From an uncultured SAR86 cluster bacterium (lineage in GTDB: Bacteria; Pseudomonadota; Gammaproteobacteria; Magnimaribacterales; D2472): a stretch of 64,000 bases of DNA. Below the pieces are notes generated by a model. That model ran no database searches, had not been told where the DNA came from, and saw nothing but the letters and a program-made list of their open reading frames with translations. The stretch lies in contig CACJCN010000006.1 of NCBI GenBank assembly GCA_902591925.1, positions 9,919 through 73,918 of the forward strand, in the 5' to 3' direction. Position 1 is the stretch's first letter. Each line of letters begins with the position of its first letter. The position numbers were made by a program, and so were the translations under genes. Below are positions 654-47,749 of the stretch, in pieces.

Positions 654-674
654 AGTTAGTAATAAAATAAAAAA

Positions 675-3968: not shown

Positions 3969-4022
3969 TTTGAATTAGAATAAATGAATTTAAAAATTAA
4001 TGCATAATATTATATATAATTT

Positions 4023-4099
4023 CGGGATGTAGCGCAGCCTGGTAGCGCACTACACTGGGGGTGTAGTGGTCGTCGGTTCAAATCCGGCCATCCCGACCA
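4023..4099 (+). tRNA. tRNA-Pro(GGG)
   Basis: 77-nt cloverleaf CGGGATG...CATCCCG-ACCA; anticodon stem CTACA/TGTAG with loop CT-GGG-GG; GGTTCAAATCC T-arm; encoded CCA. Confidence 0.95.
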
Positions 4100-4103
4100 A
4101 AGC

Positions 4104-4379
4104 TTAATTTAATGAATTTTTTATATTATGTGAGGGTCGTAGAGTTAATTTTTTCCTTTCATTAATCATATATTCCACTTTTGTAAGTGGGTTTCTCCCA
4201 ATTCTTTTTGGTGAGAGATGATAGTAAAAAGTACCAAAATTGGATATCTTAACTTTACTTTTAAATGAATTCTCAACGACCAGTTTTATAAAGGTGTTTA
4301 GAAAAGAATTTGAATCTGAAGAAGAAATAAGAGTCTTGGAAGAGATATTTTTTGCAATATCCTTTTTTCCAAGACTCAT
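4104..4379 (-). CDS. ihfA: HU/IHF-family DNA-binding protein, IHF-alpha-like
   Basis: VKISNFGTF and GRNPLT motifs; lies downstream of the pheST region as ihfA usually does. Confidence 0.65.
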
Positions 4380-4392
4380 TAATTAGTTTCTT

Positions 4393-5907: not shown

Positions 5908-6116
5908 AGCTATTACCTCAAATATTTGCTATTCAGAGTCATATTCACATAAATAATTAACTTACACAACTCTGGAAGAGAATAATACGTCATTTTTAAT
6001 CAAATTGACATACATTTAATATGTTTTTTTTATAATCATTATTTAAAAACAGCTTTTCATGTTTAATTTGGAATATTAAGCAGCAATATCAGTGCCAATT
6101 AAATTTTATCTAGCTC

Positions 6117-8072: not shown

Positions 8073-8085
8073 TCATAATCTCTAT

Positions 8086-9933
8086 CTAATTGTTATCAAT
8101 TGCAGATAAAGACGCTAATGCAACTCCAAGATTACCTAAAATAGATACATATGCTTGAGTTGCAAGCCTTCTTGATGCAGAGTTATCAATTTTTCTAGGT
8201 ACAAAAATTACTGATCCTGGATACATTTTGAGATCTCGAGGCTGATTTGCAAATAAGTTTCTTTGTTTTGAATATCTCTGTGTTTCACCGTTTGGATGAA
8301 GTATATAAATAGATTCCTTGTCAGCTAATCTCTTATAACCACCAGATTTTTCTACAAAATAATCAACACCTCTATTTGATGAAAAAGATACCGCACCCTC
8401 TGAAGAAACTTCTCCGTATACAAAAACACTATTTGTTTTTTCTGGAACAATTAAGGAATCTCCTTCACGTATATTTATAAAATTCTCACTTTCTTCACTC
8501 AATAAATCTATAACAATTCTGCCACTAGGAGAAGAATTTTTTATTTCCTCAGTTAATCTTACAATCGGCATTAAATCAGCATTCTGTCCAATGTTTAATT
8601 GACTAATAAGAATAATGTTATCGAGGAACTCCTCGTATAATAATTCTTGAGCTTTTTCATTAATTAATTTTGCATCATTATTTTCATAAACAGCCCCAAA
8701 AGGATAGGCATTTTCAGTAAATCCTCCAGCTTTTTTAACTAAATCTTCAATTGTTTCTCCTGCAGCCATTATATATTTACCTGGTTTATAAACAGCACCT
8801 GTAATTGAAGCAGTTCTGTATGAAAATTCTCTAATATAAATTAAATCTCCATCAATGGGTTTGATAGATTCAAACTGAGAAACATTTGTTATAGGTATTG
8901 ATCTAAGACTACCATCTAATATCCTTTCTAATGAAATGTTTTGAAGATCTGCTGTTTGTTTGATTCCATTTGAATATTTTACAATACTATCTAAAAATTG
9001 ATCTTCAGAAATTTCGTACTTTGCTGGTCTTTTAACTGCGCCATTGATTGTGATAACTCCTTTTCTGGCTTCAACAAAGACAACATCACCGGAACGAAGG
9101 CGTTTTTTTAATGAGTAATTTCCATCAATAAGTATGTCATACACATCCAAGGTATCAACTATCTTACCATTTCTTAGTAAATTTATTTCTCTGTAAGATC
9201 CAAATTCATTTACACCTCCAGCAGCATTCAAAGCATGTAATATGTTTGAGTTTCCAGTGAGAGTATAAACACCAGGATTTTCTGCATTACCGGATACTAA
9301 GATATTAACATCTCTTATTTTATCTAAGCTGATGTATGAATCAGTTTGAATGTATACAGAGTCAACAAAAGATTTCACAAGCGTGGAAGCTTCATCTAGA
9401 GTTAATCCAGCTAATGTTATTTTTCCAATATCTGGGATATTTATAGATCCATCTCCTTTGATAGTAAAAGTATCAAATAAATCTGATTCACCAATGAGTT
9501 GTATTCTTAAAATATCTCCGATATCCAGTGTGTAAGATGAATCAGGATTAGGCTCGTTTATTGGCATAAATGAAGTTTGAAATGTTTTGAAGAAGTCAGA
9601 TCCAAACAATTTAAGATCCTCAGAAATTTCGAGATTTTCGCTAGAATTAAGTCTTCTTTCAAGCTCCCTTAGATCATTCTCAAGTCTTGTCTTTAACTTA
9701 ATGAGTTCCTCTTGTTGCTCAAATTTGCTTGAGTAAAGTGTAGACCGATAATTGTTTTTAAGATCATCTATATTTTCATCTGCTCTATCCATTAGGTCAT
9801 CCTTTATATCCTCTGGAAGGCTATCTAGATATGATTCATCTAATTCTTGAGCATAAACAAAACTCAATGAAAACAAGAATATAAATGGTAAAAATTTTAA
9901 ACTATTCATAAATTTCTCTGGATTGAATAACAA
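8086..9933 (-). CDS. Polysaccharide export protein with multiple SLBB domains (KpsD/OtnA-like OPX)
   Basis: LFGSDFF, YTLDIGD Poly_export domain, repeated V.G.V..PG.Y SLBB units and a C-terminal amphipathic helix; no lipobox seen; true start may be MNSLKF (9909). Confidence 0.85.
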   Translation of the reverse strand: MLFNPEKFMNSLKFLPFIFLFSLSFVYAQELDESYLDSLPEDIKDDLMDRADENIDDLKNNYRSTLYSSKFEQQEELIKLKTRLENDLRELERRLNSSENLEISEDLKLFGSDFFKTFQTSFMPINEPNPDSSYTLDIGDILRIQLIGESDLFDTFTIKGDGSINIPDIGKITLAGLTLDEASTLVKSFVDSVYIQTDSYISLDKIRDVNILVSGNAENPGVYTLTGNSNILHALNAAGGVNEFGSYREINLLRNGKIVDTLDVYDILIDGNYSLKKRLRSGDVVFVEARKGVITINGAVKRPAKYEISEDQFLDSIVKYSNGIKQTADLQNISLERILDGSLRSIPITNVSQFESIKPIDGDLIYIREFSYRTASITGAVYKPGKYIMAAGETIEDLVKKAGGFTENAYPFGAVYENNDAKLINEKAQELLYEEFLDNIILISQLNIGQNADLMPIVRLTEEIKNSSPSGRIVIDLLSEESENFINIREGDSLIVPEKTNSVFVYGEVSSEGAVSFSSNRGVDYFVEKSGGYKRLADKESIYILHPNGETQRYSKQRNLFANQPRDLKMYPGSVIFVPRKIDNSASRRLATQAYVSILGNLGVALASLSAIDNN

Positions 9934-32339: not shown

Positions 32340-32858
32340 TTATTTGATTTGATCCCACTTTGATGCTATTTCATTTAAACCTTTAAAAATTTCATATGGT
32401 TCATCATTATTTAAATGCGAATTAATTAAGAAACACTTCTTGAGCTTGCTTTTTTTAGAAGCCTGCATATCTGAATGCTTATCTCCAACAAAATATGACA
32501 ATTTTCTATTGATTTTATATTCCTTAATAGCCTTTTCTATTAAATAATTTTTTGGTTTTCTGCACTTACAATTATCATTTGGATGATGAGGACAGTAATA
32601 TACGCCATTAATATTAATAGAATCATTTTTCAAAATTCTTAACATATGTGAATTGATTTCTTGAAATTCTTGTTCAGTAAAATATCCTCTACCAATGCCA
32701 GATTGATTAGTTACAATAATAAGCAAATATTTTTTAAGTTGAAAAAACTTTAGTGCGTCAACAACTCCTTCAATTAATCTAAAATCTGAAATTTTATAGA
32801 CATAACCATGATCATAATTTATGACTCCATCTCTATCCAAAAATATTGCTTTATTCAT
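32340..32858 (-). CDS. gmhB: D,D-heptose 1,7-bisphosphate phosphatase
   Basis: FLDRDGVIN, TNQSGIGRG, CPHHP..CKCRKP, VGDKHSD. Confidence 0.92.
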   Translation of the reverse strand: MNKAIFLDRDGVINYDHGYVYKISDFRLIEGVVDALKFFQLKKYLLIIVTNQSGIGRGYFTEQEFQEINSHMLRILKNDSININGVYYCPHHPNDNCKCRKPKNYLIEKAIKEYKINRKLSYFVGDKHSDMQASKKSKLKKCFLINSHLNNDEPYEIFKGLNEIASKWDQIK

Positions 32859-33278
32859 TTAGCTATCAATAGTTTCATTAATTATTCTAGTTGAAGATTG
32901 ATTAGGGATAAGATCAACCAGAACTACTCTGCCTCCATACGAATTTACAAAATCATTGCCAATCACCTTGTCGATTGGATAATCTGATCCTTTTACAAGA
33001 ACATCTGGTTTAATTTTTATAATTAAATTAAGTGGGTCGGTTTCTTCAAAAATGATAACCTCATCAACAAATTTTATAGCCTTGAGAACTGTCAATCTAT
33101 TTTCTTGAGAATTTATAGGCCTATCAGGACCCTTAATTTTTTTTACAGAAGTGTCTGAGTTAAGTCCAACAATTAGCTTATCCCCCATTTTTTTTGCTTG
33201 TTTTAAAAGATGTATATGACCTGAATGAATAATGTCAAAACATCCATTAGTGAAAACAATTTTTTCTGTTTTTTTCAA
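32859..33278 (-). CDS. rfaE2: D-glycero-beta-D-manno-heptose 1-phosphate adenylyltransferase (stand-alone HldE domain II)
   Basis: VFTNGCFDIIHSGH, GLNSD.SV..IKG..RPIN, LVKGSDY. Confidence 0.92.
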   Translation of the reverse strand: MKKTEKIVFTNGCFDIIHSGHIHLLKQAKKMGDKLIVGLNSDTSVKKIKGPDRPINSQENRLTVLKAIKFVDEVIIFEETDPLNLIIKIKPDVLVKGSDYPIDKVIGNDFVNSYGGRVVLVDLIPNQSSTRIINETIDS

Positions 33279-33284
33279 AATATT

Positions 33285-34208
33285 TTAAGGTTTGATTTCA
33301 TCTTGGCAAACAGTAGAAGTTCCAAATTTTGAAACTACTATTGATGCGCACTTATTGGCAAAATTCATTGAATCTTCATAACTCATTCCGATCGCTAAAC
33401 AAGCAGAAAAGGCTGCAACTACTGTGTCTCCAGCACCAGTTACATCATAAACTTCTTTTGAAGTTGTAGCTTCATGAAACATTTCTTTATTTTTATATAA
33501 AGTCATTCCCTCACTACCCCTAGTAATTAATAATGCGTCCAAATTTATATCATCTACTAACTTAAATGCTTTTTTATTAAAATCATCTTGATCTTTAAAT
33601 TCTCCAGTCATTTTTTTAAATTCCAGAACATTTGGAGTTAATACAGATGCTCCAAAATATGAAGACAAATCGTATTTTTTGGGATCAACAATAACTTTTT
33701 TGTTAGCTTTTTTTATGATTTTTATCAAAGCTTGTGGATCATAGATGAATCCTTTGGCGTAATCTGATACAACAATGATATCTGCTTGAGTGATTAAATG
33801 TTTATAAGAATCATACTTTCCTGGGTTATGAACTTCTGGTTTTGACTCAAAATCTACTCTCATTAATTGTTGAGAGTTTGAAATTAATCTTAATTTTTTT
33901 GTTGAAATTGCTTTATTTACTTTATTGAAAATTGATTTGATATTAGCTTCATCTAATAAATTTTCTATCACTATAGAATCTTGATCGTCCCCGACAGAAG
34001 AAACAAGAGTTACTTGCGCTCCTAAAGATTTTAAATTGATTGCAACATTTGCGGCACCACCTAGACGGAACTCTTTAGATTCCATATTTATTACTGGAAC
34101 TGGTGCTTCGGGTGAAATTCTATGACTTTCACCATGCCAATATTCATCTAACATCACATCACCAAATACAAGCACTTTTGCCAAAGAGAAGTCCAGTTTA
34201 TTAGTCAT
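33285..34208 (-). CDS. rfaE1: D-glycero-beta-D-manno-heptose 7-phosphate kinase (stand-alone HldE domain I)
   Basis: GDVMLDEY, RISPEAPVPV, GGAANVA, SDYAKG, DVTGAGDTV. Confidence 0.93.
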   Translation of the reverse strand: MTNKLDFSLAKVLVFGDVMLDEYWHGESHRISPEAPVPVINMESKEFRLGGAANVAINLKSLGAQVTLVSSVGDDQDSIVIENLLDEANIKSIFNKVNKAISTKKLRLISNSQQLMRVDFESKPEVHNPGKYDSYKHLITQADIIVVSDYAKGFIYDPQALIKIIKKANKKVIVDPKKYDLSSYFGASVLTPNVLEFKKMTGEFKDQDDFNKKAFKLVDDINLDALLITRGSEGMTLYKNKEMFHEATTSKEVYDVTGAGDTVVAAFSACLAIGMSYEDSMNFANKCASIVVSKFGTSTVCQDEIKP

Positions 34209-35112
34209 TTTTTAATGGCCTTGATATCAAATTTAAATATGGATAAAAGTATTGTTTCGGGATTCCAAAATTAATAAATACATTTGGAAAAAGACTGATA
34301 CCAAAGAAAAAATTTTTTCCAAAAAAATTAAAATTTTTACCTATTCTATGAACTGGAGGACATTTTTCTAAACTTGGATAAATGTACTCATCGGGAAGAT
34401 AGTCCAGTTGGAAGTTATGCTTATTGAAAACTTTTTTTATACCGTTTAGATATCTGTAATAGACATCCCATTCACCTGATCTGGATATGGAATATCTGTA
34501 TTTCTCACCTCTTAAATTAATATATCTTGTTGCGAGCCATCTTGGCATATGTCCCAGAAATGCAAGTCCTGTATGATCATCAATTGGTTTAATGGGATTA
34601 GGTACTAAGGTGAAAACACAGCCACGACATATTCTAAAAATTTCTGGAAGCATCCATTCTAAAACTTCATTTTCAAGATGTTCAAAGACAGAAAACGAAG
34701 TTATCAAATCAAATGAATTATCTTCAAATGGAAGAGACTTTTTATCATTATAAATAAAGGTCGATTCGTCCATATTATTTTCTTTTGCTAATATATTTGC
34801 TAGCTCAAGATGCTCAGTATGGAGATCAATGCCCCTTGCATCATGACCAAGAGCATTCATTAAAACAACAAATTCTCCAGTTCCTGTACCAATATCTAAA
34901 ATTTTTAGCTTTTCATTGTTTGTTTGTGTATTACATTCTTTTAACGATATATAATCAAGAATACTCTTCATCCAATCAGCATAACCAAGCTCGTTGGTGT
35001 AATTAAGTTTCTCATAATGTTCTTTTAGATGCGCATTCACTCTAGACTTATTAATTCCCTCTTTAGAATAATATTTATCCAAAGCTATCATAAAATTCTT
35101 ACATTCAATCAT
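34201..35112 (-). CDS. Class I SAM-dependent methyltransferase
   Basis: ILDIGTGTGE, LPFEDNSFDLI..FSVFEHL. Confidence 0.85.
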   Translation of the reverse strand: MIECKNFMIALDKYYSKEGINKSRVNAHLKEHYEKLNYTNELGYADWMKSILDYISLKECNTQTNNEKLKILDIGTGTGEFVVLMNALGHDARGIDLHTEHLELANILAKENNMDESTFIYNDKKSLPFEDNSFDLITSFSVFEHLENEVLEWMLPEIFRICRGCVFTLVPNPIKPIDDHTGLAFLGHMPRWLATRYINLRGEKYRYSISRSGEWDVYYRYLNGIKKVFNKHNFQLDYLPDEYIYPSLEKCPPVHRIGKNFNFFGKNFFFGISLFPNVFINFGIPKQYFYPYLNLISRPLKND

Positions 35113-35861
35113 TTGGACACCTCTGCTGCAACAATAAAAGTGTCATCTCTGCCAGGCATCTTATCAATGACTAAAAAAATTTTACAACTTAAATATTTAA
35201 GAAGGCTAACAATTTGATCTTGAGTCCAAACATGAAAGTGGAAGCATCCATTATCAATTATCCATTTTTTATTCCAAGTCCCATCACCATTTTTTGCATC
35301 TTTTTCCCATGGATGGTTGTATGGGTCACATGTAATTTTCAAAAACTCATCCATTAAATGAGAATATCTACCTTCTCTCTTAATATAATCGTTTTCATTG
35401 ACATCATTTTCAAAATCATAAATATGCTTATCAAGTTTTGATATCTCTCTGCCCTTATCAAAGGTTCTCTCACAATGAGGCAACATAATAAAAATTATTC
35501 CACCATTTTTAGTCACTCTAATAAATTCATTTATAGTTTTTATTGGATTGATACAATGTTCAAGGCAATGAGCTGTAACTAAAAAATCAAATTCACTATC
35601 ATTTACGGGAATATCATCAGCATCACCAGATAAATATTTGAACTGATTTTTTCTTGATTCTGTATACTTGTCTAACAAAATGGTATTTTTTGAAGAAGAG
35701 AAGGGAAAGTCTCCTGGGCCAATTTCTAGTCCGTTGCCAGTAAAGTATTTTTTATTAATATAGTGTTTGAATAATTTAAGTTTAGGATGATTATGTTCAT
35801 TCAGAACTTTAAGAATAATTTGCTTTAACTTATTAGGTAATATCTTTTTTAGAAAATTCAT
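35109..35861 (-). CDS. Class I SAM-dependent methyltransferase (Methyltransf_11-like)
   Basis: GLEIGPG, IPVNDSEFDFL..HCLEH..NP, HFHVWT. Confidence 0.8.
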   Translation of the reverse strand: MNFLKKILPNKLKQIILKVLNEHNHPKLKLFKHYINKKYFTGNGLEIGPGDFPFSSSKNTILLDKYTESRKNQFKYLSGDADDIPVNDSEFDFLVTAHCLEHCINPIKTINEFIRVTKNGGIIFIMLPHCERTFDKGREISKLDKHIYDFENDVNENDYIKREGRYSHLMDEFLKITCDPYNHPWEKDAKNGDGTWNKKWIIDNGCFHFHVWTQDQIVSLLKYLSCKIFLVIDKMPGRDDTFIVAAEVSK

Positions 35862-35867
35862 ATATTT

Positions 35868-36206
35868 TTAATTATTTGCTTCTAAAACATCCATTAATGT
35901 AATAATTGAAATTATTTTTTTTGAGGAATCTACAACAGGAACAGCATGAATCTTATTTGATAACAAAACCCGTTTGGCTTCTTCAAGGCATCTATCACTG
36001 TCTTCAACAAATGTCGGGTTAAGTTCAGCAATATCCTTGGATTGAACTTTCAAAGATGCTCCGTCAATTAAGGCTCTAATAATATCACCTTGGCTAATAC
36101 ATCCAGTTAGTTGTCCCTTCTCATTAGTTAAAAATGTTATTCTAGTATTGCTTGTGTCTATAACTTCGAGCATTTCTTTAATACTAATGTTTTCATCAAC
36201 TATCAT
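35868..36206 (-). CDS. Stand-alone CBS-pair protein
   Basis: LTGCISQGDIIRAL and HAVPVVD..KIISIIT CBS motifs; start MIVDE overlaps the neuC stop. Confidence 0.8.
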   Translation of the reverse strand: MIVDENISIKEMLEVIDTSNTRITFLTNEKGQLTGCISQGDIIRALIDGASLKVQSKDIAELNPTFVEDSDRCLEEAKRVLLSNKIHAVPVVDSSKKIISIITLMDVLEANN

Positions 36207-37356
36207 TATCTTCCTCCGAAACAAACTTATTTCTTAGATTCATATTTAATTTAGTTTTTTTCAAAATATCAATAATTCTTTTTGAACTCTTACCATCTCC
36301 ATATGGATTTTTCACAATTTTTAATTTATTTTGAAATGAATCTGACTCAATCTCTTTTAAAGCTTTTTTTAATTTTTCAAATCCAGGTTTTTCTACGTCT
36401 AACACTGATTCAGCAGCAATCCTTGCCCTTTGTCTTAAACCAAGATTAATAGTTGGTATTTTGAAACTTGGTGCCTCCAGAATGCCAGAACTACTATTAC
36501 CAATTATAAATTTACAATGCTTTAAAAGAGAAAGATATTTTTTTCTATTTAAGCTTCTGAAACCTAAATCTCTTTCAGAAATAGAAGATTCAATAGAGTT
36601 TATTATTTTTAAGCTTCCAGAATCATTATTTGGATATATCCATATTTGCTGAATTTTTTTTGCTATACATACTTTATTTATCAAATCTACATAATCTTTG
36701 CATTCATCTGGATTTTCTGAAGTTGGATGAACAATACATAAAGCGAATTCTTTTTCAATTTTAGAATTAAGATTCTTCTTAAGTTGATTTAGTGAAAAAA
36801 GCTTTTGATTTACAATATCATCTAGTTGAGGAGCTCCAACATTATGTATCCTAAATTCTTGTTCACCGAATCTTTTTAATCTGTTGCTGGCATCTTCATT
36901 GCTGGCAAAATGAATGTGGGCCAGTTTGCCTATAGCATGCCTAACCATTCCATCTTTATGTCCGGACAATTCACCTGCTTGAATATGAGCTATGGGTATA
37001 TCAGAATAATAGGCTGCATTAGCAGCAATAAATGTTTCAGCCCTATCTCCCGCAAGAAGCAAAATATCTATATCCAATTTATTTATAATATCAGGAAGTT
37101 GCATCAGAAGAAGACCAAGAGATTTTGACCAAGATATTTCATCGGGTCCGCTTATATTCATATAAATTTTTTCATCTATTTTAAAACCATCTTTCTCAAT
37201 TTCTCTATAAGTAAATCCTTTTTCTGGTAAGAGATGCATGTTAGCAATTATCGTTTTGAAGTCTACTTTATTAATTTTCATCTGTTCCATTACAGGCCTT
37301 AAATATCCCCACTCACCTCTTGAACCTGTAAATATTCCAATTCTATTCTTCATCAA
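36196..37356 (-). CDS. neuC: Hydrolysing UDP-GlcNAc 2-epimerase (NeuC/LegG-like)
   Basis: TGSRGEW, GDRAE, HIQAGELSG, RHAIGKLAHIHF, GNSSSG, NLG.RQ..R. Confidence 0.88.
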   Translation of the reverse strand: MMKNRIGIFTGSRGEWGYLRPVMEQMKINKVDFKTIIANMHLLPEKGFTYREIEKDGFKIDEKIYMNISGPDEISWSKSLGLLLMQLPDIINKLDIDILLLAGDRAETFIAANAAYYSDIPIAHIQAGELSGHKDGMVRHAIGKLAHIHFASNEDASNRLKRFGEQEFRIHNVGAPQLDDIVNQKLFSLNQLKKNLNSKIEKEFALCIVHPTSENPDECKDYVDLINKVCIAKKIQQIWIYPNNDSGSLKIINSIESSISERDLGFRSLNRKKYLSLLKHCKFIIGNSSSGILEAPSFKIPTINLGLRQRARIAAESVLDVEKPGFEKLKKALKEIESDSFQNKLKIVKNPYGDGKSSKRIIDILKKTKLNMNLRNKFVSEEDNDS

Positions 37357-38359
37357 GATCTTTCCAAGATATTAGGGTATTTTCTTTGATTAAATTTAAG
37401 GCTTTTTTTCCAATAACTTTTTTATATTGATTGCTAGGGATGCCAAGACCAGGTCTTTTGGTTTGAATATCATTTGATGAAATTATTTCACCGGGATTTA
37501 TATTTCTTTTAGCGACTATACTTCTATATGCCCAGGTTCTAATATCTACTTCCTTGTCCTGTATTTTTTTTTCAAACCCGGATGTTTTATCAATATATTG
37601 AACTGCACTGATTAATTTTTTAAATTCATCGGATTCAATTGATACAGACTGATCTGGTCCAGGTACAAAGCTAGAAATAGTGATATGTTTTTCAAGGATT
37701 CTAGCGCCCAAGAAAGCAGATACAATTGTGGTATAAATCTCTGGGGAATGATCTGAGTGGCCGATTATTATATTTGGAAATTCTTCAATCATTTTCTCAA
37801 TCAAATTCAAATTCATATCGGCATATTTAGGAGGATACTCACTTAGACAATTCATCAATGCAAAATCCAAATTAGTTTTTTTAATATACTCAACATTTGA
37901 TTTAAGTTCGTCCCATGAACACATTCCAGTCGAAAATAAAACAGGCTTACCAATAGTTTTTAAATTATCAATAAACCAATGGTCTTGGAATTCTCCAGAT
38001 CCAATCTTAAAAAAAGGAACCAATGACTGAATTTCTTCAGCAGCTTTGAAAGAAAAAGGTGTACACAAATATGTTATTTTTTTTGAATCACAATATTCCT
38101 TTAATTTATAGTGCTGTTCAAGACTTAGAGAGTTTCTCTGAAGAAAATCAAATAATGGTTCCTCAAAATTATCTGACATTGGAGATTCTTCAAGCATTTC
38201 TTCATAAGCTAAATGATGTTGGAATTTCACCGCATCTGCTCCTGCATCAATTGCAGCATCTACAAGCGCAATAGCCATATCAAAACTGCCCATATGATTG
38301 TCACATGCCTCTGCAATGACATAAATTTTGTTTTTTGTTAATGTATTAAAAAATGACAT
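37343..38359 (-). CDS. neuB: Nonulosonate (N-acetylneuraminate-like) synthase with C-terminal SAF domain
   Basis: GADAVKFQ, KIGSGE, STGM, GHSDH, LEKHIT, GPDQ..S, KRPG.GI. Confidence 0.9.
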   Translation of the reverse strand: MSFFNTLTKNKIYVIAEACDNHMGSFDMAIALVDAAIDAGADAVKFQHHLAYEEMLEESPMSDNFEEPLFDFLQRNSLSLEQHYKLKEYCDSKKITYLCTPFSFKAAEEIQSLVPFFKIGSGEFQDHWFIDNLKTIGKPVLFSTGMCSWDELKSNVEYIKKTNLDFALMNCLSEYPPKYADMNLNLIEKMIEEFPNIIIGHSDHSPEIYTTIVSAFLGARILEKHITISSFVPGPDQSVSIESDEFKKLISAVQYIDKTSGFEKKIQDKEVDIRTWAYRSIVAKRNINPGEIISSNDIQTKRPGLGIPSNQYKKVIGKKALNLIKENTLISWKDLDEE

Positions 38360-38385
38360 ATTTTAAATATTTAGGCCATTATACC

Positions 38386-39057
38386 TTACCGAGAAGATAA
38401 AATTGCTTCTGCAATCCTAAAGTCATCTTCATCATTTATATCCATTGCACTAATCTTATCAACAACATAAGGGTAGATTTTCTTGCCTAATACACGTTTA
38501 TTGGAAATTAGATTTTCATATTTGGTAACATAAACATTTCCTGTTTCAAAATACATTTTTTCACGATCTTGTCTTCTTCTGGGTTGATTTTTTATAGTGT
38601 GTTGAAATTTATTATCAACAATATTTCCAAAACAAGAGTCTGTTTCACAAATGCACATTACTGAGTCATATTCATTTTTATTAAGTAATATATCGATACA
38701 ATCATCTATTGTTGATGTCTTTCTCAAGGGAGATGTTGGTTCAAGCGTTACAACTATTTTTGGAACTTGATTTCCCTTTTTTACTAATGTTTCACATACA
38801 TGTATTAATGAAAGTTCTGTTGGTGATTTATCATCAGATATCGAACTAGGTCTTTTTATAACTATTAATTTTTCATATTTTTTACATATATTAATTATGT
38901 CATCATGATCTGTACTAACTATTAATTTATCAATTTTTTTTGATTTAAGTCCAGATTCTATTGTGTATTCAATTAATGGCTTACCGTTAAGCAACTTGAT
39001 ATTCTTAAGTGGTATAGATTTTGATCCGCCCCTTGCAGGAATAATTCCGTATATCAT
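38386..39057 (-). CDS. neuA: CMP-nonulosonate (acylneuraminate) cytidylyltransferase
   Basis: IPARGGSKSIPLKN, VSTD, EPTSPLR, DINDEDDF. Confidence 0.9.
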   Translation of the reverse strand: MIYGIIPARGGSKSIPLKNIKLLNGKPLIEYTIESGLKSKKIDKLIVSTDHDDIINICKKYEKLIVIKRPSSISDDKSPTELSLIHVCETLVKKGNQVPKIVVTLEPTSPLRKTSTIDDCIDILLNKNEYDSVMCICETDSCFGNIVDNKFQHTIKNQPRRRQDREKMYFETGNVYVTKYENLISNKRVLGKKIYPYVVDKISAMDINDEDDFRIAEAILSSR

Positions 39058-39058
39058 A

Positions 39059-40231
39059 TTAATCTCTTTTAAAAATATCTCTCGTGTAAATTATAGATTT
39101 ATCAAAATTTACCAAATCATCTGAAAATCTATTCGCAATTATTAGATCTGATTCAATAAAAAGCTCATTTAAACTATTTATAATCTTTAATGGTAAGTCT
39201 AGTTCATTGTTGTAGTTGGGTTCGTAAAGCAAGAACTCTATTTGAGAATCTTGAATGCTATTTAAAATGTCTATAATTGCAGAAGATCTAAAGTTATCTG
39301 ATCCAGATTTCATAGTCAATCCAAAAATCCCAAGCCTTTTTGGAGATTTTTTAAGAATTTGGCTCTTAATAAAATCTTTTCTAACAGAATTTGAATCAAC
39401 TATTGCAGAAATTAATTTCTGAGGAATATTCTCAAAATTTGACAATAGCTGTTTTGTATCTTTTGGCAAACAATAACCGCCATATCCAAAAGAAGGATTA
39501 TTATAATAATCTCCAATTCTTGGATCTAAGCTAATACCTGTAATAATATCTTTTGAACTTAAATCATTTATCTCTGCATATGTATCCAATTCATTAAAGT
39601 AAGAAATTCTCATAGCCAGGAAAGTATTTGCAAATAATTTTATAGCTTCTGCTTCGGTAGATTCAGTTAATAAAATTTCAATATTTTTCTTCAGAGCTGC
39701 TTTTGACATTAACTCTGAAAATTCTTTACCAACCTTATGCATATCTCCTACAATTATTCTTGAAGGATATAAATTATCGTATAGGGCTTTACCTTCTCTT
39801 AAAAATTCAGGTGAAAAATAAATATTCTCATAATTAAATTTTTCTCTTGCTTTTTTTGTGAAGCCAACAGGAATTGTAGACTTTATTATGATTTTGGCAT
39901 TGGGGTTAAATTTAATAATGTCATCTATAACCATCTCAACTGAACTAGTGTCAAAATAATTAGTATCTGGATTATAATTAGTTGGTGTAGCGATTATAAC
40001 GAATTCCGCATCGACATATGCCTGTTTTTTAGAGGAAGATGCAATAAGATTTAATTTTTTATTTTTAAAATATTCATTAATTTCATCATCAGCAATAGGT
40101 GAAATTCTTTTATTAATCATATCAATTTTTTCTTTGTTGATATCGAATAGGTGAACATTGTTACTTTGTGATAGAAGAATGGCGTTAGATAAACCTACGT
40201 AACCACTTCCAATAATAGATATTTTCTTCAT
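39059..40231 (-). CDS. ugd: UDP-glucose 6-dehydrogenase
   Basis: GSGYVG, IATPT, SPEFLREG, SFGYGGYCLPKD. Confidence 0.93.
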   Translation of the reverse strand: MKKISIIGSGYVGLSNAILLSQSNNVHLFDINKEKIDMINKRISPIADDEINEYFKNKKLNLIASSSKKQAYVDAEFVIIATPTNYNPDTNYFDTSSVEMVIDDIIKFNPNAKIIIKSTIPVGFTKKAREKFNYENIYFSPEFLREGKALYDNLYPSRIIVGDMHKVGKEFSELMSKAALKKNIEILLTESTEAEAIKLFANTFLAMRISYFNELDTYAEINDLSSKDIITGISLDPRIGDYYNNPSFGYGGYCLPKDTKQLLSNFENIPQKLISAIVDSNSVRKDFIKSQILKKSPKRLGIFGLTMKSGSDNFRSSAIIDILNSIQDSQIEFLLYEPNYNNELDLPLKIINSLNELFIESDLIIANRFSDDLVNFDKSIIYTRDIFKRD

Positions 40232-40246
40232 ATAAAAATTATGCCT

Positions 40247-41290
40247 TTACTCTCTTTGATATTTATAAGCATTCCATGCATCTAAAATCATTGACTTAAT
40301 ATCTCTTTTTGCTTCCCATTGAAGAAAATTTTTTGCATATTCAACATTGGCAAAAGATGACCCTATATCTCCAGATCTCCTATCTACAATTTTATATGGT
40401 ATTTCTATTCCGGTATATTTTATAAAGTTTTTTATTAATTCAAGAACTGTATAGCCCTCGCCAGTACCTAAATTAATTGCTTTACAAAAGTTTTCTTTAT
40501 CAGCTGTTAGGAATAAATTATTTAATGCTGCAACATGACCATCAGCTAAGTCCATTACATGAATATAATCTCTAACTCCAGTGCCATCTTTAGTCTCATA
40601 GTCATCACCAAATATAGATAACTTATTCATTTCTCCAGATGCAACTCTAAGAATGAGTGGCATAATATTAGAGGGTACATTTGGTACTTTTTCAGAGATT
40701 AGTCCAGATTCATGTGCGCCAATTGGGTTAAAGTACCTTAACATTATAATTTGCCAGTTTTTACTTGAACTTTCATTATTGCTATTAGATAAACTGGTTA
40801 AAATATTTTCTATAATTAACTTTGAATATGCATAAGGACTTAGAGGTAATAGTTCTGAGTCTTCTTTTAAAGGAACACTTTCGTTATTACCATATACACT
40901 TGCCGAAGATGAAAAAATAAATTTACTGACACCGTATCTGTTACACATATCGAGAACATTAATTGTTCCTTGAATATTATTTCTAAAATATAGCAAAGGA
41001 TAATTAACCGAGTCTCCTACAGATTTAAAACCAGCAAAATGAATAACAGAAGAGAAATCATTATCTTTAAAAACTTTCTCTAGTTCATTAAAATTCAATA
41101 GATTCAATTTGTAAAATTTAATTTCTCTGGAAGTAATTTTTTCAACAGCATGAATTGTCTTTATAGAACTGTTAGATAGGTTGTCAATGATGATCGGATT
41201 ATAGTCATTGTTGATTAAGGATATTAGAGAATGACTGCCTATGAATCCTGCCCCTCCTGTAACCAAAACATGAGAATTGTTTGTGCTCAT
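40247..41290 (-). CDS. galE: UDP-glucose 4-epimerase
   Basis: GGAGFIGSH, HFAGFKSVG, LRYFNPIGAH, DGTGVRDYIHV.DLA. Confidence 0.93.
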   Translation of the reverse strand: MSTNNSHVLVTGGAGFIGSHSLISLINNDYNPIIIDNLSNSSIKTIHAVEKITSREIKFYKLNLLNFNELEKVFKDNDFSSVIHFAGFKSVGDSVNYPLLYFRNNIQGTINVLDMCNRYGVSKFIFSSSASVYGNNESVPLKEDSELLPLSPYAYSKLIIENILTSLSNSNNESSSKNWQIIMLRYFNPIGAHESGLISEKVPNVPSNIMPLILRVASGEMNKLSIFGDDYETKDGTGVRDYIHVMDLADGHVAALNNLFLTADKENFCKAINLGTGEGYTVLELIKNFIKYTGIEIPYKIVDRRSGDIGSSFANVEYAKNFLQWEAKRDIKSMILDAWNAYKYQRE

Positions 41291-41305
41291 TTCTATATTT
41301 GTTTA

Positions 41306-42217
41306 TTAACCTTCAGTTTGTCTTCTTCGATCAATAAAATAAGCAGTCAACATAGAAATCAAGAAGCTCAAAATCGTTCCAATTATGCAAATTATTGATC
41401 TTTGAGGTTTAGATTTTTTTTCAGGTATATATGGCTTATCAATAATTGTTACCGCGTAATCATCTTTTATATTTGTAACCATCTTTGTATTTAATTGGGA
41501 CTCTGTCAATTGAATTAAAGCCTCCTTGAGGGAATTAATTTTTTCATTAACTATTTCTTCTCTTAAATAATTAAGAGCCATATCAGCTTCAGCATATGCT
41601 TTCTCTTTTAAACTTTTGTTTAGTTCTGTAATTATTATTTCTAGAAAATTTTTAGCAAATACGGGAGATTTGTGTTCGACATAAATAGTTATATAGTCAG
41701 TAATTTCGTTATGCTCAACTCTAAAAGTCTCCATATATGTCTCGTAGGCTTCTAATACTGAAGGCTTTGGTTTGAAGGGATAATTTACATCCCTAATCCA
41801 TAATTTTTTTTCCTTATTGTACTGTTTTATATCATGGATTATCTCACCTTTTGTATGATCAAAGTAATCTGTTGCCAACAAATCAGCTAGAACGTCATAG
41901 TTTAAAATAATTCTTCCAAGAAAGTCTCTTGATCTTAATGTTTCAATTATTAATTGAGTTTCGCTACTTGCACCAGACGGGATCCTGATTCCAGTTAGAG
42001 ATGCTAGTCCACCAAATTGAGATAGAGTAGATGAAGATGATTGTGATTCAGTTGGTTTCAATAACGCTGAAGATTGATAATAATTTGACAAAGTCAGAGC
42101 ATATAATACCGATAAGATTGCTCCAAAAAAAGTTATCGTGGAAATTATAAATTTATATTTTAATAAAAAATCTACGAGATCTTTAAGGTTAATCTCGCCT
42201 TGAGTGTATTCTTCCAT
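41306..42217 (-). CDS. wzz: Polysaccharide co-polymerase / chain-length determinant (no kinase domain)
   Basis: EINLKDL N-terminus, two TM segments, IIDKPYIPEKKSKP before TM2. Confidence 0.85.
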   Translation of the reverse strand: MEEYTQGEINLKDLVDFLLKYKFIISTITFFGAILSVLYALTLSNYYQSSALLKPTESQSSSSTLSQFGGLASLTGIRIPSGASSETQLIIETLRSRDFLGRIILNYDVLADLLATDYFDHTKGEIIHDIKQYNKEKKLWIRDVNYPFKPKPSVLEAYETYMETFRVEHNEITDYITIYVEHKSPVFAKNFLEIIITELNKSLKEKAYAEADMALNYLREEIVNEKINSLKEALIQLTESQLNTKMVTNIKDDYAVTIIDKPYIPEKKSKPQRSIICIIGTILSFLISMLTAYFIDRRRQTEG

Positions 42218-42257: not shown

Positions 42258-42344
42258 TGGTACCCGGAGCCGGACTTGAACCGGCACGCCATTGCTGGCG
42301 AGGGATTTTAAGTCCCTTGTGTCTACCAATTCCACCACCCGGGC
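42258..42344 (-). tRNA. tRNA-Leu(TAA)
   Basis: 87 nt, GCCCGGG...CCGGGT-ACCA; anticodon arm AGGGA-CT TAA AA-TCCCT; long variable arm. Confidence 0.95.
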
Positions 42345-42602
42345 ATACATAATTGTGGATTATATTACATAATTAGGAATAACATTATAATTTTCTGTAT
42401 AGGTATTGTTTTAAACTTCACTTTTAGTTTTAAATTATCCCTTAAAATACAACCAAAGAGATGTCAACAATCGAATCTTTGGAGCAATTGTCGTTGTTTA
42501 TGAATATTTTTAAAGGCAAGTAAGAAAATAAGGAGTTCTAACTGCATAACTCAAAGCTCCAGATTGCATAATTTGAATTTTAAAAATTTTTTTTAAATAC
42601 TC

Positions 42603-42676
42603 TGGAGGCTGAGGCCGGAATCGAACCGGCGTAAACGGCTTTGCAGGCCGCTGCATGACCACTCTGCCACCCAGCC
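42603..42676 (-). tRNA. tRNA-Cys(GCA)
   Basis: 74 nt, GGCTGGG...CTCAGCC-TCCA; anticodon arm GCGGC-CT GCA AA-GCCGT. Confidence 0.95.
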
Positions 42677-42763: not shown

Positions 42764-43699
42764 TTAAACTGGTTTTTGTGGAAAATCATTAGTATCAAAT
42801 CTAGGGAGTTCTAAATTATTATGTTGAGTAAGATTTGCTATCTCAGGCTTAACAGTAAGTCCCACAGAACAATTTTTTTTATTTAATAAATCGAGTGTAT
42901 TTTTATTATATCCTCCATAAGGATAGCACATTATCCAATCAGAGAGTTTCACCCCAATATCCTCAAGAAATTCAAGAGATTCGTCAATATCTAGTTCTTG
43001 ATTTTTTTTGTTAAGTTTATCTAACCAATAATGCATAGAGCCATGTGAACCAATAAACATATTATTTTCAATCAGTTCATTTAATTCATCCTTTGTCATA
43101 TATAATTTTTTAGAAAACTCTTGAGGAGATTGCTTAACATGCTTCAAAAATAATTTATTAATAACATTTTTCCTTACTGAAGCAGGTAAAGCATGTTGAA
43201 GCATATTTTTGAAGAATCTTACGTCAGCAGAGTCAAATCTACTTGAAATATAAAAATTTTTTTTAAGATTAATAAATTGTTTTTTTGAAATGCCTCTGTC
43301 ATAGCACTCATTTTCAAGATCTTCATTAAGAGATTTGATGTCATTTTGACAAGCAAGAATAAAATGTATGCAATTGACATCAAGCATCTCATTATTTTTT
43401 ATAGCATGCGCAGGCGGAAAAAATGATCCTTGAATACCTCTTTTTTTGAGTTCGGGAAATACATAATCATAATGATCTTTATATCCGTCATCAAATGTAA
43501 GCCAGCAAGAATTTTCTGATAATTTTTTTTGGTTTTTAATTGAATAAATTACTTCTTCAGCAGTTACAAAGTTATAGTTTTCAGATAAGAAATCCAATTG
43601 AAAACTGAAGTCAGCAAACTCAAGCCCCTTTATGTTTGGATACTTCGATTGCATAATCGGCCTAACATAGTGATACATTATGATAGTAAGATTATTCAT
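42764..43699 (-). CDS. Polysaccharide deacetylase (CE4/NodB family)
   Basis: IMYHYVR, LTFDDGY.DH, GSHGSMH, CYPYG, LPRFDTND. Confidence 0.85.
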   Translation of the reverse strand: MNNLTIIMYHYVRPIMQSKYPNIKGLEFADFSFQLDFLSENYNFVTAEEVIYSIKNQKKLSENSCWLTFDDGYKDHYDYVFPELKKRGIQGSFFPPAHAIKNNEMLDVNCIHFILACQNDIKSLNEDLENECYDRGISKKQFINLKKNFYISSRFDSADVRFFKNMLQHALPASVRKNVINKLFLKHVKQSPQEFSKKLYMTKDELNELIENNMFIGSHGSMHYWLDKLNKKNQELDIDESLEFLEDIGVKLSDWIMCYPYGGYNKNTLDLLNKKNCSVGLTVKPEIANLTQHNNLELPRFDTNDFPQKPV

Positions 43700-44651
43700 T
43701 CAATTTATTTGGTCTTTCTTGATCACAATCACCTGTAATTATGTTTAGGCCATATGAGACTTCAGTTAATTTCTTGTAACAAAAGTTTTTTACTTTATAT
43801 TTATTGATAAGTGGTTCAAAATATAAAGGTAGAAAATTTTGGTTATCACAAATCTCAAAAATTCCTTTCTCAATTTCTGAAATATCTGATAATAGAATAT
43901 CTATATAGTTGACCTCTCTTTCAAAGAGTTCATTGGAAACATTTCTAGCAAAAATTGAAATTCCATTAAAATCACCAGCAAAATCTACAATCCTAAAAAT
44001 GCTATTATTATTTGATTCATCAAATAATAGTCTTCCAACTATGAGAGATATTTCTTTACCTTCTTTTTCTATAGAAAAGCAAATATAGTCATAAAAACTA
44101 GTACTAAGATATTTATTCTTAATATATTTAGCTTTTTTTAATTCTTCAAAAATCTCGTTATTATTTATCCTACTGATTTTATATTCAATGGTCTTATTTT
44201 TTTGTTGAATTAATTTTTCTACCGGCTTTAATAACTGATACATCTTGCCAGTAATGTATCCCATCCTTTCATAAATAGGTATGACATCTGAACCGACACC
44301 CATACTTGCAATATAATCGGTATCTATATTACTTTCTAAATAATTAATTAATTTAATACCGCAAGGCTCACTAAGATTCTTTTTACTCATCCACATTGAT
44401 AGCCATGCAACATCTTGAACAATTTTGGGATCAAACTGAGTATTTGTAATATATCCTAAAATACCAACAATATTTTTATCTTTGTCTTTTGCAAGAAAAA
44501 ATTGGAGTTCATTTCCTCTTAGGAAGTAATGTTCAAAAACTCTATTATTCTTGCAGAGAATATGATCCTTAGACCAATTTTCTTTTATAAAAAGTTGTAT
44601 ATTTTTATAGTCCTTTATTGATGCAATTGAATAATCAAACATTTTCTTCAA
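43692..44651 (-). CDS. GNAT-fold acyltransferase-like protein
   Basis: IVGILGY, WLSMW, G..LINYL, IPIYERMGY resemble GNAT motifs; second half of unclear fold. Confidence 0.5.
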   Translation of the reverse strand: MKKMFDYSIASIKDYKNIQLFIKENWSKDHILCKNNRVFEHYFLRGNELQFFLAKDKDKNIVGILGYITNTQFDPKIVQDVAWLSMWMSKKNLSEPCGIKLINYLESNIDTDYIASMGVGSDVIPIYERMGYITGKMYQLLKPVEKLIQQKNKTIEYKISRINNNEIFEELKKAKYIKNKYLSTSFYDYICFSIEKEGKEISLIVGRLLFDESNNNSIFRIVDFAGDFNGISIFARNVSNELFEREVNYIDILLSDISEIEKGIFEICDNQNFLPLYFEPLINKYKVKNFCYKKLTEVSYGLNIITGDCDQERPNKLNE

Positions 44652-45036
44652 TTAACTCAACAATAAATCCTAATGGAGATAATAGAAAGATAACTCTTTG
44701 TCCATTAAAGGCAATAGCATTAAAAAATTTTGTTAAAAAACCATAGCCTCTTTCTCTAAATAAAATACATTGATCCTCTATCTTGTTGCACTTATAGGCA
44801 AAATGATGAATATTTGATCCCTGATTATCTAGGACCGATGCAATTGGACTTCCTGATGAGAGTGGCTGTATTAGTTCAATATTTGAAGAGTTTTTGTATT
44901 TAAGAAATTGAACCTTTACATTGATTTCGATGTCTTCAAACACTTGAGAAGATATAAAGCCAGGAAAATCTCTTTCAAAAACATCTTTAGCTTTTTCTAT
45001 GTTGTCTACGACAACTCCAATGTGATGAAATCTCAT
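44635..45036 (-). CDS. VOC-family protein, methylmalonyl-CoA epimerase-like
   Basis: FHHIGVVV, IELIQP, IHHFAY, VELIE metal-ligand pattern. Confidence 0.85.
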   Translation of the reverse strand: MRFHHIGVVVDNIEKAKDVFERDFPGFISSQVFEDIEINVKVQFLKYKNSSNIELIQPLSSGSPIASVLDNQGSNIHHFAYKCNKIEDQCILFRERGYGFLTKFFNAIAFNGQRVIFLLSPLGFIVELIEENV

Positions 45037-45263
45037 TTGTTAGAAGTTAGGCTACTTATCTTAAGTTTAATAGCTTTAATTGATAACAATTCAGACATAT
45101 CATCAAAACTGAATCTAATTCCAAGATTTTTTTCTAAAGCCATAAGAAACAACATATTAGAGAGTGAATCCCATTTACTTATGTCCCCTATTTCTAAGTC
45201 TTCAAAGTTCTCTGGTATAGAGTCAATCTGCATTACTTCACAAAATATATCTTCAATTTTCAT
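45033..45263 (-). CDS. Acyl carrier protein
   Basis: 76 aa, acidic, WDSL phosphopantetheine attachment motif. Confidence 0.88.
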   Translation of the reverse strand: MKIEDIFCEVMQIDSIPENFEDLEIGDISKWDSLSNMLFLMALEKNLGIRFSFDDMSELLSIKAIKLKISSLTSNK

Positions 45264-45268
45264 CTGTA

Positions 45269-46885
45269 TTAATTATATAGACTATCTATATTAACAACAG
45301 ATTTAGAAGAGGGATACTTCACCATAATTTCACCATTTTTAGAAGTTTTCATTTCAAGATCTTTGCAAAGATCTAATAGAAATTCTTTTACTAATTTATT
45401 CCTTTCTGTTTCAAGATATTGTATTTGCAAATATGGAATGTCGTTTTCTTTGACGATATTTAAAACGGATTGCATCATCCATAACTCAATATCTCTTCCA
45501 AGAATCCTGCAACTCAGTAAGAATGTATCTAAAAAAGCTGTTTTTTTTGCAAGATCAAGTTTCAAAATAAACATCCCTATTTGACCGTGATCTCCAAAAT
45601 CATCTTTTACAGACAAAATAAATGATTTAAAGTTTCTATTTGCTTGAATTTTGCTTAAATCATTTTCTGAATATCTAATAGTTCTCATGTTAAATTGATT
45701 AGTTTTTTGTGACATTTGAGAAGCTCTTAACAAACTTGATTCAGAAATTTCTGTTAAATTAGGTTTTAAGTTTATTTTTTTTAAAAAACTTTTTTTGTCA
45801 AAATTAATCTCTTTGGACGCTTTATTAAATTTTGCACGAGATTTATATTGTTCAGACTTATTGATATCTTCTTGAGTAACTTGAATTTTTGAAAAATCAA
45901 ATAAATTTTCTAAAATTTTAGGCCATTTTTCTACCTCAGGAGGAGCTTCAACAACCATAACATCCGGGAGTACTTTTTTAACTTTTTCTCTTTCAATTGG
46001 ATTATCATCCCAAAATACAAAACTATCCAGACCAAGGTTTAATTCACTTGCGATTTGAATTATATTCTCTGATTTTTCAATCCAATTTATCCTGCTGCAA
46101 ACAATATCATCTTTTTTTAAAATCATTTCATCGTGACCATCAAATACACTCCATACATCTTTTTCTTCATTCTTTGAAGAAATTGCCAATAAGACTCCAT
46201 TTTTTTTGATGTTTTTAATTATTGCTTGAAAATCTTTAAAGGCATGACCAATGCCGTCACCTCCAAGTCTAATACCTTTGATTTCATCTTCTCCAATAAC
46301 ACCACCCCACAGGGTATTATCACAATCTAAAACAAGAACTTTTTTACATGCTGAAATAGATCTTTCAATTACTTTAGAAATCATTTTATCTATTTCCGAG
46401 AAACCCAATAATGAAACTCGCATATGTGAGAAATACCAATTTCTAGAATCAAATATGTTTTCATGTCCTAGTTCAGCAAATCGTTTATCCATATCAATTA
46501 AAAATAAATTTGGATTATCTTTTGCCAAATCATAAATTTTATCTTTAAAACTTATATATTCATTCAAATCATAATCAGCATATCTTGCTGATGTAATTAA
46601 ATTTTTACAAAAGTTATAGCTTATTGATAGATATATTTTTTTATTTAATTTAAGAGAGTCTTTAAGAGAGTCAACAATAAGATCAGTAGAGTTTTTTGAT
46701 TCTTCAGAATATATGTCTTCAAAAAAAATAATAGATATTAAGGTATCATAATCTTCAACTTTGGAGAAAGCATTTATTAAATTACCATAGTCGGCAAAAT
46801 TGATTTTTGTGAAATGTTTAGAAGTATTTTTCCAATTTGAAATAGATTGAGGCAAATAGGAAGATGCTACTAGAAGGGTTTTCAT
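45269..46885 (-). CDS. FkbH-like HAD-IIIC phosphatase / glyceryl-ACP transferase
   Basis: LVLDCDNTLWGG, ISSKN, INW..KS.N, FWDDNPIER, QKTNQFN, DDFGDHG, FLLSCR.LGR.IE. Confidence 0.92.
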   Translation of the reverse strand: MKTLLVASSYLPQSISNWKNTSKHFTKINFADYGNLINAFSKVEDYDTLISIIFFEDIYSEESKNSTDLIVDSLKDSLKLNKKIYLSISYNFCKNLITSARYADYDLNEYISFKDKIYDLAKDNPNLFLIDMDKRFAELGHENIFDSRNWYFSHMRVSLLGFSEIDKMISKVIERSISACKKVLVLDCDNTLWGGVIGEDEIKGIRLGGDGIGHAFKDFQAIIKNIKKNGVLLAISSKNEEKDVWSVFDGHDEMILKKDDIVCSRINWIEKSENIIQIASELNLGLDSFVFWDDNPIEREKVKKVLPDVMVVEAPPEVEKWPKILENLFDFSKIQVTQEDINKSEQYKSRAKFNKASKEINFDKKSFLKKINLKPNLTEISESSLLRASQMSQKTNQFNMRTIRYSENDLSKIQANRNFKSFILSVKDDFGDHGQIGMFILKLDLAKKTAFLDTFLLSCRILGRDIELWMMQSVLNIVKENDIPYLQIQYLETERNKLVKEFLLDLCKDLEMKTSKNGEIMVKYPSSKSVVNIDSLYN

Positions 46886-46975: not shown

Positions 46976-47749
46976 ATGCCTACTAAAAAGTCCAAATTTA
47001 AAGATAGCAAAACTGGTGAGATTTTTAATAGTTCAGATGAAGAGACCAAAGATTTAAATAAATTAAGGAATCATCATATGAACTTGATTCCTAAACTTGG
47101 CTTGGGTTGGAATCAACACTCCATAGTTACACTCAGAAGGCAATCCATATCAAGAATTCTTTATTATGACTGGGTATACAAAAAACTATTAGGTAAGCCG
47201 GGTGTTATTTGTGAGTTTGGTGTTCAATGGGGAGCAACAATGAGCCTTCTTACTGCGCTAAGAGGTATCTATGAACCATATAACTATACCAGAAAAATTT
47301 TTGGTTTTGATACCTTTGAAGGCTTTGTAGATACTTCTGAAAAAGATACTAAAACCTCAAAAAAAGGCGATTATGTTGTCACTAAAAATTATGAAGAAAC
47401 ATTAGAAGAAATTCTATCTATTCAAGATGAGCAAAATCCTGTTAGTCACATTCAAAAAAATCATCTTATAAAAGGTGACGCGAGCAAAACAATTAAAAAA
47501 TGGCTTAAAGATTATCCTGGAAATGTAATTGGAATGGCAATTTTTGATATGGATGTATACGACTCAACATATGATGTTTTAAAGTTAATTAAGCCAAGAT
47601 TATTTAAGGGATCTATCCTTGTATTTGATGAGTTTAATGACGACAACTGGCCTGGTGAAACCCAGGCTGTATTCGATGCACTCGAGATGAACGATTTAGA
47701 AATGAAGCATTTTCCAAACCAACCAAACTGCGCTATTTGTATTTTATAG
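46976..47749 (+). CDS. TylF/MycF/NovP-like sugar O-methyltransferase
   Basis: ICEFGVQWG, GFDTFEGF, IKGD, FDMDVY, GSILVFDE, WPGE. Confidence 0.8.
   Translation: MPTKKSKFKDSKTGEIFNSSDEETKDLNKLRNHHMNLIPKLGLGWNQHSIVTLRRQSISRILYYDWVYKKLLGKPGVICEFGVQWGATMSLLTALRGIYEPYNYTRKIFGFDTFEGFVDTSEKDTKTSKKGDYVVTKNYEETLEEILSIQDEQNPVSHIQKNHLIKGDASKTIKKWLKDYPGNVIGMAIFDMDVYDSTYDVLKLIKPRLFKGSILVFDEFNDDNWPGETQAVFDALEMNDLEMKHFPNQPNCAICIL

Follow-up and report, generated by a model that had tools for sequence, protein, structure and literature searches.

Introduction

In PKS/NRPS pathways, enzymes of the FkbH type load D-1,3-bisphosphoglycerate on a carrier and dephosphorylate it there (PMC8949500). Vioprolide carries L-glyceric acid, and the FkbH of its pathway activates D-3-phosphoglycerate (PMC7383572, PMC10099666), while a D-glyceroyl substituent is found in the O-antigen of Pragia (PMC10609480). 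In Campylobacter jejuni 11168, cj1301, "annotated as an epimerase", lies beside the fkbH gene cj1302, the product being 2,3-di-O-methylglyceroyl-pseudaminate (PMC3068675, PMC7099621). Strains without cj1301 or cj1302 showed no dimethylglyceroyl product, amid other strain differences (PMC7099621, PMC3068675), and the deacylase-like, DUF4910-type gene cj1295 is required for the glyceroyl product. According to the literature, the genes that decorate nonulosonates and amino sugars with N-glyceroyl have yet to be identified: in Tannerella their identity "remains elusive" (PMC6120980), and in Campylobacter only cj1295 was tested (PMC3068675).

A further described relative is CA_C2192 of Clostridium acetobutylicum, a VOC protein published as a glyoxalase I (GlxI) (PMC5412262; PDB titles 2QH0 and 3HDP). 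Its gene sits in a flagellar glycan island together with an ACP (CA_C2198), an FkbH (CA_C2199), an N-acyltransferase (CA_C2197) and a DUF4910 protein (CA_C2195) (PMC4000134, PMC13317340). When the neighbourhood of CA_C2195 was described in 2014, the VOC protein was given no role (PMC4000134). In the literature searched, no test of CA_C2192 on an acyl-ACP was found, nor any paper joining FkbH to a VOC enzyme or glyoxalase, or methylmalonyl-CoA epimerase (MMCE) to ACP and glyceryl.

Genetic organisation of the cassette

The window, i.e., the whole stretch of 64,000 nucleotides analysed, belongs to a genome of an uncultured SAR86 cluster bacterium (1.2 Mb, ~32% GC, 93% complete) and harbours, within a surface-glycan locus, a minus-strand operon in the order FkbH-ACP-VOC-GNAT-CE4 deacetylase. 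The FkbH-type glyceryl transferase/phosphatase (HAD-IIIC, 538 aa; 45269..46885, minus strand) scores 268.6 bits on TIGR01686 against a cut-off of 146.65, its motifs DCDNT (at 187) and LSCR (at 457) being intact. It adjoins an acyl carrier protein (ACP) of 76 aa (45033..45263, minus strand; PF00550), the phosphopantetheine site of which, W31-D32-S33, lies in a WDSL motif with Ser33, WD[S] being kept in 25 FkbH-linked ACPs. With DxDxT and an acyl-transfer Cys on the one side and the DS motif on the other, the pair has the features of a glyceryl-ACP loading system, and the FkbH protein is predicted to charge the ACP with glycerate taken from 1,3-bisphosphoglycerate. Elsewhere in the genome, pgk, an ACP synthase and a second, separate ACP are present.

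The gene for the VOC metalloenzyme (133 aa, FkbH-linked or CA_C2192-like subfamily; 44635..45036, minus strand; PF13669) follows. As the original prediction had noticed, its start overlaps the ACP stop, ATG and TGA forming a 4-nt overlap (ATGA; AAATGAGA), and no in-frame start is present upstream of this ATG. The overlap was rejected as proof of coupling between the two proteins, since overlaps of exactly 4 nt are ordinary in this window (10/48 gene pairs, with neighbours overlapping in 23/48). The evidence tying the VOC protein to the cassette is conservation, not gene overlap. An ORF of 128 aa on the plus strand (44908-45294), lying over the VOC and ACP genes, was treated as a shadow ORF.

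The next gene (43692..44642, minus strand) encodes a tandem-GNAT-fold acyltransferase and overlaps the VOC stop by 8 nt; the listed ORF opens at TTG 44651 but its homologues begin at the MFDY position, matching ATG 44642, the probable start. No Pfam or NCBIfam match was obtained for this protein (43692-44651), which was identified from Atlas GNAT clusters at 0.95-0.96 and from Foldseek matches to 2OZG, Eis and NMT (TM ~0.5), and which shows a conserved C-terminal motif, namely GD[CG]DQ[DE]RPN. The tandem GNAT is predicted to move the acyl group from the ACP to a sugar, and the CE4 polysaccharide deacetylase encoded after it (311 aa; 42764..43699, minus strand; PF01522, 69 bits) to free an amine for later re-acylation. 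These two genes travel together in loci L001-L004, L052, L054, L060 and L104-L108.

Divergently from the cassette lies a gene for a TylF-like O-methyltransferase (46976..47749, plus strand; PF05711), which also flanks loci L005, L102 and L114 and is possibly a tailoring partner. Downstream, the glycan genes wzz, galE, ugd, neuA-like, neuB and neuC (36196..42217, minus strand; Pfam/NCBIfam) possibly constitute the acceptor pathway. The region 32340-38359 contains, after neuB/neuC, genes for CBS and two methyltransferases, along with separate genes for a PfkB kinase, a cytidylyltransferase-like protein and a HAD protein, which together recall a heptose pathway in split form. A possible integration boundary is marked by tRNA-Cys and tRNA-Leu (42258-42676), located between the cassette and wzz, and the GC content of cassette genes is 26-31%, vs. 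31-34% for their contigs. Among 40 relatives searched, many of them incomplete, no VOC protein of this type was found and FkbH was not found either, with one exception; the cassette is thus accessory. FkbH DNA had no match in Escherichia coli genomes, and a search of viral contigs gave no match.

The VOC protein and its subfamily

Membership in the VOC superfamily is indicated by PF13669 (56.5 bits for a cut-off of 27) and by the paired beta-alpha-beta-beta-beta fold observed in the structural model and by Foldseek. The model (pLDDT 95.5) aligns with a TM of 0.89 to 3HDP/2QH0, 0.75-0.85 to MMCEs and 0.43 to E. coli GlxI. When compared with the domain-swapped GlxI 1F9Z (TM 0.43, rmsd 13 Å), it exhibits instead the active-site topology of MMCE, set within a single subunit; the domain-swapped dimer of glyoxalase I is thus not seen here, CA_C2192 being a published exception in this respect. 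The His/Glu/His/Glu ligands claimed in the original prediction are indeed retained, as H5, E54, H78 and E127 coincide in alignment with the metal-binding residues of 2QH0/3HDP and of human MCEE. Among 127 relatives, E54 and E127 are conserved in 127/127, H5 in 126 and H78 in 121. The protein would thereby bind a divalent metal through these four residues, which cannot identify the reaction since glyoxalase I and MMCE of the human type both have the same set.

Respective to known families, TIGR03081 (MMCE) is the best NCBIfam match, yet with 56.4 bits against a cut-off of 114.95, and TIGR00068 (glyoxalase I) gives 21.6 bits against 120. The protein scores 165 bits on an FkbH-linked profile, which contains it among its rows, vs. 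64 bits on an MMCE profile. The MMCE motifs are replaced by AIAFNG and FLLSP, whereas GAHG and HP are present in 16/16 canonical rows; more generally, FkbH-linked VOC proteins show AxA[FY] in place of GAHG together with an invariant Asp35, a residue that occurs in 118/127 relatives. In alignment with the MMCE of Streptomyces coelicolor, F110 falls at S115 and D35 at N36, the AxA[FY] loop position corresponding to G114-S115, and the S115 site is the one mutated in the substrate-analogue structures of that enzyme. In the phylogenetic tree, canonical MMCEs (GAHG/FLHPK) form their own clade (support 100/99), none of which adjoins an FkbH, and FkbH-linked VOC proteins comprise a core clade of 37 rows (100/99) besides deeper rows, which are long-branched and weakly placed. 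As such, the VOC protein of the window is assigned, from sequence, to an MMCE-fold subfamily apart from MMCE, with a substrate loop that appears remodelled. CA_C2192 is assigned to the same subfamily, scoring 128 bits on its profile, for 77 with human MCEE and 26 with E. coli GlxI; cj1301 (~138 codons) may belong there as well, judging by annotation and size.

The predicted complex between the VOC protein and the ACP scored 0.01 and was not used as evidence. A search for fused forms returned three long proteins with no ACP or FkbH fusion, two of which score MMCE-like and carry a GTPase-type family, and no VOC domain was present within the FkbH-bearing ORFs examined.

Co-occurrence with the loading system

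The comparison of gene neighbourhoods covered 44 VOC-anchored loci, which are not independent and were scanned with one motif in a manner favouring this clade. An FkbH or an ACP is seen at 35/44, the other nine being contigs of 1-4 kb, and FkbH occurs in 28/29 loci of at least 4.5 kb, the 29th having one ~19 kb off on the same plasmid. The subfamily spreads over at least five phyla, additional cases being a VOC-ACP-FkbH arrangement by neuB/neuC in Nitratidesulfovibrio vulgaris, a pse cluster, and an acidobacterial genome with the VOC gene at each of its two FkbH sites. While the acyltransferase varies between loci, i.e., GNAT, AAC(3), MBOAT, NeuD-like or PseH-like, the loader and carrier are constant, and therefore the constant partner of the VOC protein is the loaded carrier. 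The coupling to ACP chemistry advanced in the original prediction is in this way strongly supported by comparative genomics, for a reason other than the gene overlap on which it had drawn.

In the reverse direction, a VOC protein is encountered at only ~9/109 FkbH sites over 401 genomes, a minimum figure, and loci L052, L054 and L060 have the CE4/ACP/FkbH/GNAT chassis without it. In this widespread acyl-donor cassette, the VOC gene is an optional module. Of 60 loci anchored on FkbH, 0/8 with VOC vs. 20/52 without have a MaoC dehydratase/SDR cluster, and 4/8 vs. 2/52 a methyltransferase; since the eight VOC loci were chosen knowingly and related loci are not independent, both counts are trends rather than tests. 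In the same genus, locus L169 (G418:C43, 8196-11653) exhibits FkbH-ACP-MaoC/SDR with no VOC gene, in the slot held here by FkbH-ACP-VOC, which suggests a lactyl-type variant of the cassette.

Three exceptions lack the full FkbH/ACP cassette. In L165 (5794-9966), a PseF/PseG/PIG-L locus, the VOC gene has a GNAT gene on one side and an acyl-CoA ligase gene on the other, without FkbH or ACP, possibly as a CoA-based version of the system; in L170, it accompanies an ACP, an MBOAT and a methyltransferase, with no FkbH within 8 kb; and in L171, it occurs without the cassette.

Other arrangements were also observed. The pair DUF4910 and AAC(3) (L005, L043, L120 and L135) parallels CE4 and tandem GNAT, one FkbH/ACP chassis thereby serving two unrelated remove-and-replace pairs. 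In the marine locus L005, two different VOC proteins (1-316 and 8001-8405) flank a DUF4910-FkbH-ACP-AAC(3) cassette, and in L161 (Sinorhizobium meliloti 1021 pSymB, 173-6202) an ACP and an FkbH divided between two ORFs are accompanied ~3 kb off by a VOC-like ORF (70 bits). In Tannerella forsythia, the unassigned ORFs Tanf_01195-01230 fall within the pse cluster of a Pse5Am7Gra-producing strain (PMC6120980); because locus L167 places ACP-FkbH-VOC among pseB/C/F/I/H/G-like genes, these ORFs become candidate glyceroyl genes.

Proposed function and alternative explanations

Taking these elements together, the VOC protein of the window is proposed to be a C2 epimerase interconverting D- and L-glyceryl-ACP, with a probability of about 0.55. 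In the proposed sequence of events, FkbH would convert D-1,3-bisphosphoglycerate into D-glyceryl-S-ACP, the VOC metal would chelate the glyceryl thioester on the ACP by its C1 carbonyl and C2 hydroxyl, one glutamate would take the C2 proton and the second would give a proton back on the other face, for a net equilibrium between D-glyceryl-ACP and L-glyceryl-ACP. The GNAT would then transfer the glyceroyl group to the sugar amine exposed by the CE4 deacetylase, and O-methylation may accompany this transfer.

C2 epimerisation is favoured because it is a formula-neutral reaction on a 2-hydroxyacyl thioester, for which two glutamates stand beside the metal. The single-chain topology of the MMCE type and the presence of both glutamates in all relatives speak for it, and the pattern of occurrence agrees with an optional step acting on a C3 thioester held by the carrier. 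The C. jejuni 11168 genes cj1301 and cj1302, with the dimethylglyceroyl product of that strain, are also counted on this side. The existence of both glycerate enantiomers in nature, D in Pragia and L in vioprolide, is likewise counted in its favour, although the literature yielded no case with both glyceroyl configuration and VOC status known. Vioprolide contains L-glycerate although its module is described with no VOC domain, and inversion may therefore proceed without a VOC enzyme; this case is the sign of a need for an inversion, not of this enzyme. Counted against the epimerase are the publication of CA_C2192, the sole characterised member, as a glyoxalase I, the confounding of the cj1301 correlation by other strain differences, and the three exceptional loci L165, L170 and L171.

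C2 epimerisation and glyoxalase I catalysis share the same enediolate intermediate. The nearest solved relative being published as GlxI, and the four ligands being the same, the VOC protein could be an isomerase of that type, making a 2-hydroxyacyl thioester from the hemithioacetal of a 2-oxoaldehyde, with glutathione (in detoxification) or the ACP thiol as the carrier; on the ACP, methylglyoxal would give lactoyl-ACP and hydroxypyruvaldehyde glyceryl-ACP. We regard this as unlikely, since the TIGR00068 score (21.6 vs. 120) and the TM to E. coli GlxI (0.43) are low, a detoxifying enzyme is not expected to track FkbH over five phyla or to be missing from the 40 relatives searched, loading of the ACP is already done by FkbH, and the acyl-CoA ligase next to the VOC gene in L165 points to a pre-formed thioester as substrate. 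Moreover, a side GlxI activity is expected from any 2-hydroxyacyl-thioester epimerase, so that the shared enediolate would also explain such an activity in CA_C2192. It is distinctly unlikely that the protein acts within the cassette on some other target, whether by editing or hydrolysing mis-loaded acyl-ACP, by epimerising the sugar acceptor, or in a non-catalytic role; the variety of partner acyltransferases and loci, and the occurrences without FkbH and/or ACP nearby, agree with such a role, but both catalytic glutamates are invariant and the constant partner is FkbH/ACP, which no sugar pathway is.

About as doubtful is an eliminase standing in for MaoC, which by enolisation would expel the C3 hydroxyl or phosphate of (phospho)glyceryl-ACP to give enolpyruvyl- or pyruvoyl-ACP, a reductase encoded elsewhere then leading to lactyl. 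The near mutual exclusion of VOC and MaoC/SDR, either of which can follow the ACP at the same position in a single genus, is what such an enzyme would leave behind; against it, a linked reductase is present at 1/31 VOC loci, that one an SDR fragment, methyltransferases are enriched at VOC loci, and the C. jejuni product retains both glycerate oxygens. This last point, the filling of that slot by MaoC and SDR in other FkbH loci and the lack of a reductant also disfavour the lactoyl-forming enzyme entertained in the original prediction. A VOC enzyme cannot reduce, and the route to lactyl in lactyl-starter PKS modules is a dehydratase followed by a reductase. Lastly, an ordinary methylmalonyl/ethylmalonyl-CoA epimerase present by chance in the operon would account for the best NCBIfam match, the fold and the JGI labels of relatives, but is highly improbable considering the score (56 bits vs. 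115), the loss of GAHG and HPK, the separate clade, the far better fit to the FkbH-linked profile mentioned above, and the failure to find a methylmalonyl-CoA mutase (PF01642) in the genome at 93% completeness.

Significance

Should the VOC protein be a glyceryl-ACP epimerase, its family would gain a new substrate class, the "glyoxalase I" CA_C2192 would be reassigned, many MMCE annotations would be corrected, and both the type and the chirality of the substituent would become predictable from gene content. The gain remains that of a specialist, i.e., familiar chemistry on a new substrate. The activity had been put forward as new for the family; no contrary report was found, but the subfamily itself had already been seen, CA_C2192 having been solved as a glyoxalase I. 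What is new here is the subfamily assignment of CA_C2192, the residue-level split from MMCE, the alternation of VOC with MaoC/SDR and the Campylobacter correlation. More tentatively, at somewhat under even odds, the whole subfamily, spread over at least five phyla and annotated as MMCE or glyoxalase I, may be a dedicated 2-hydroxyacyl-ACP epimerase, with a three-way code on FkbH-loaded carriers. If true, an untailored carrier would deliver D-glyceroyl, a carrier with VOC L-glyceroyl, and one with MaoC and SDR lactoyl, so that the presence of VOC would predict L- vs. D-glyceroyl on surface glycans.

Comparison with known systems

MMCE (TIGR03081; 1JC4, 6WF6 and 3RMU) resembles the VOC protein in its single-chain metal site (TM 0.75-0.85), with H/E/H/E as in human MCEE, and in what is probably a 1,1-proton transfer by two bases on a thioester. 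The VOC protein differs from it in falling below the family cut-off, in AxA[FY] for GAHG, in the loss of HPK, in Asp35, in having no mutase found and in its glycan-locus context. CA_C2192 is closer in fold (TM 0.89) and belongs with it by subfamily assignment, but the two proteins are ~30% identical, and the clostridial cassette combines DUF4910 with an aminosugar N-acetyltransferase (AAC(3) type in L005) in place of the CE4 and tandem GNAT of the window. The Cj1295-Cj1302 region of C. jejuni shows, as in the window, an FkbH with an "epimerase" neighbour and a 75-codon ORF at the position of the ACP, but with a different deacylase/transferase pair. The FkbH systems of PKS/NRPS pathways, namely vioprolide, cystomanamide and corramycin, share the carrier loading predicted for the window cassette, which, unlike them, includes no PKS/NRPS and has its acyl group predicted to go to a sugar.
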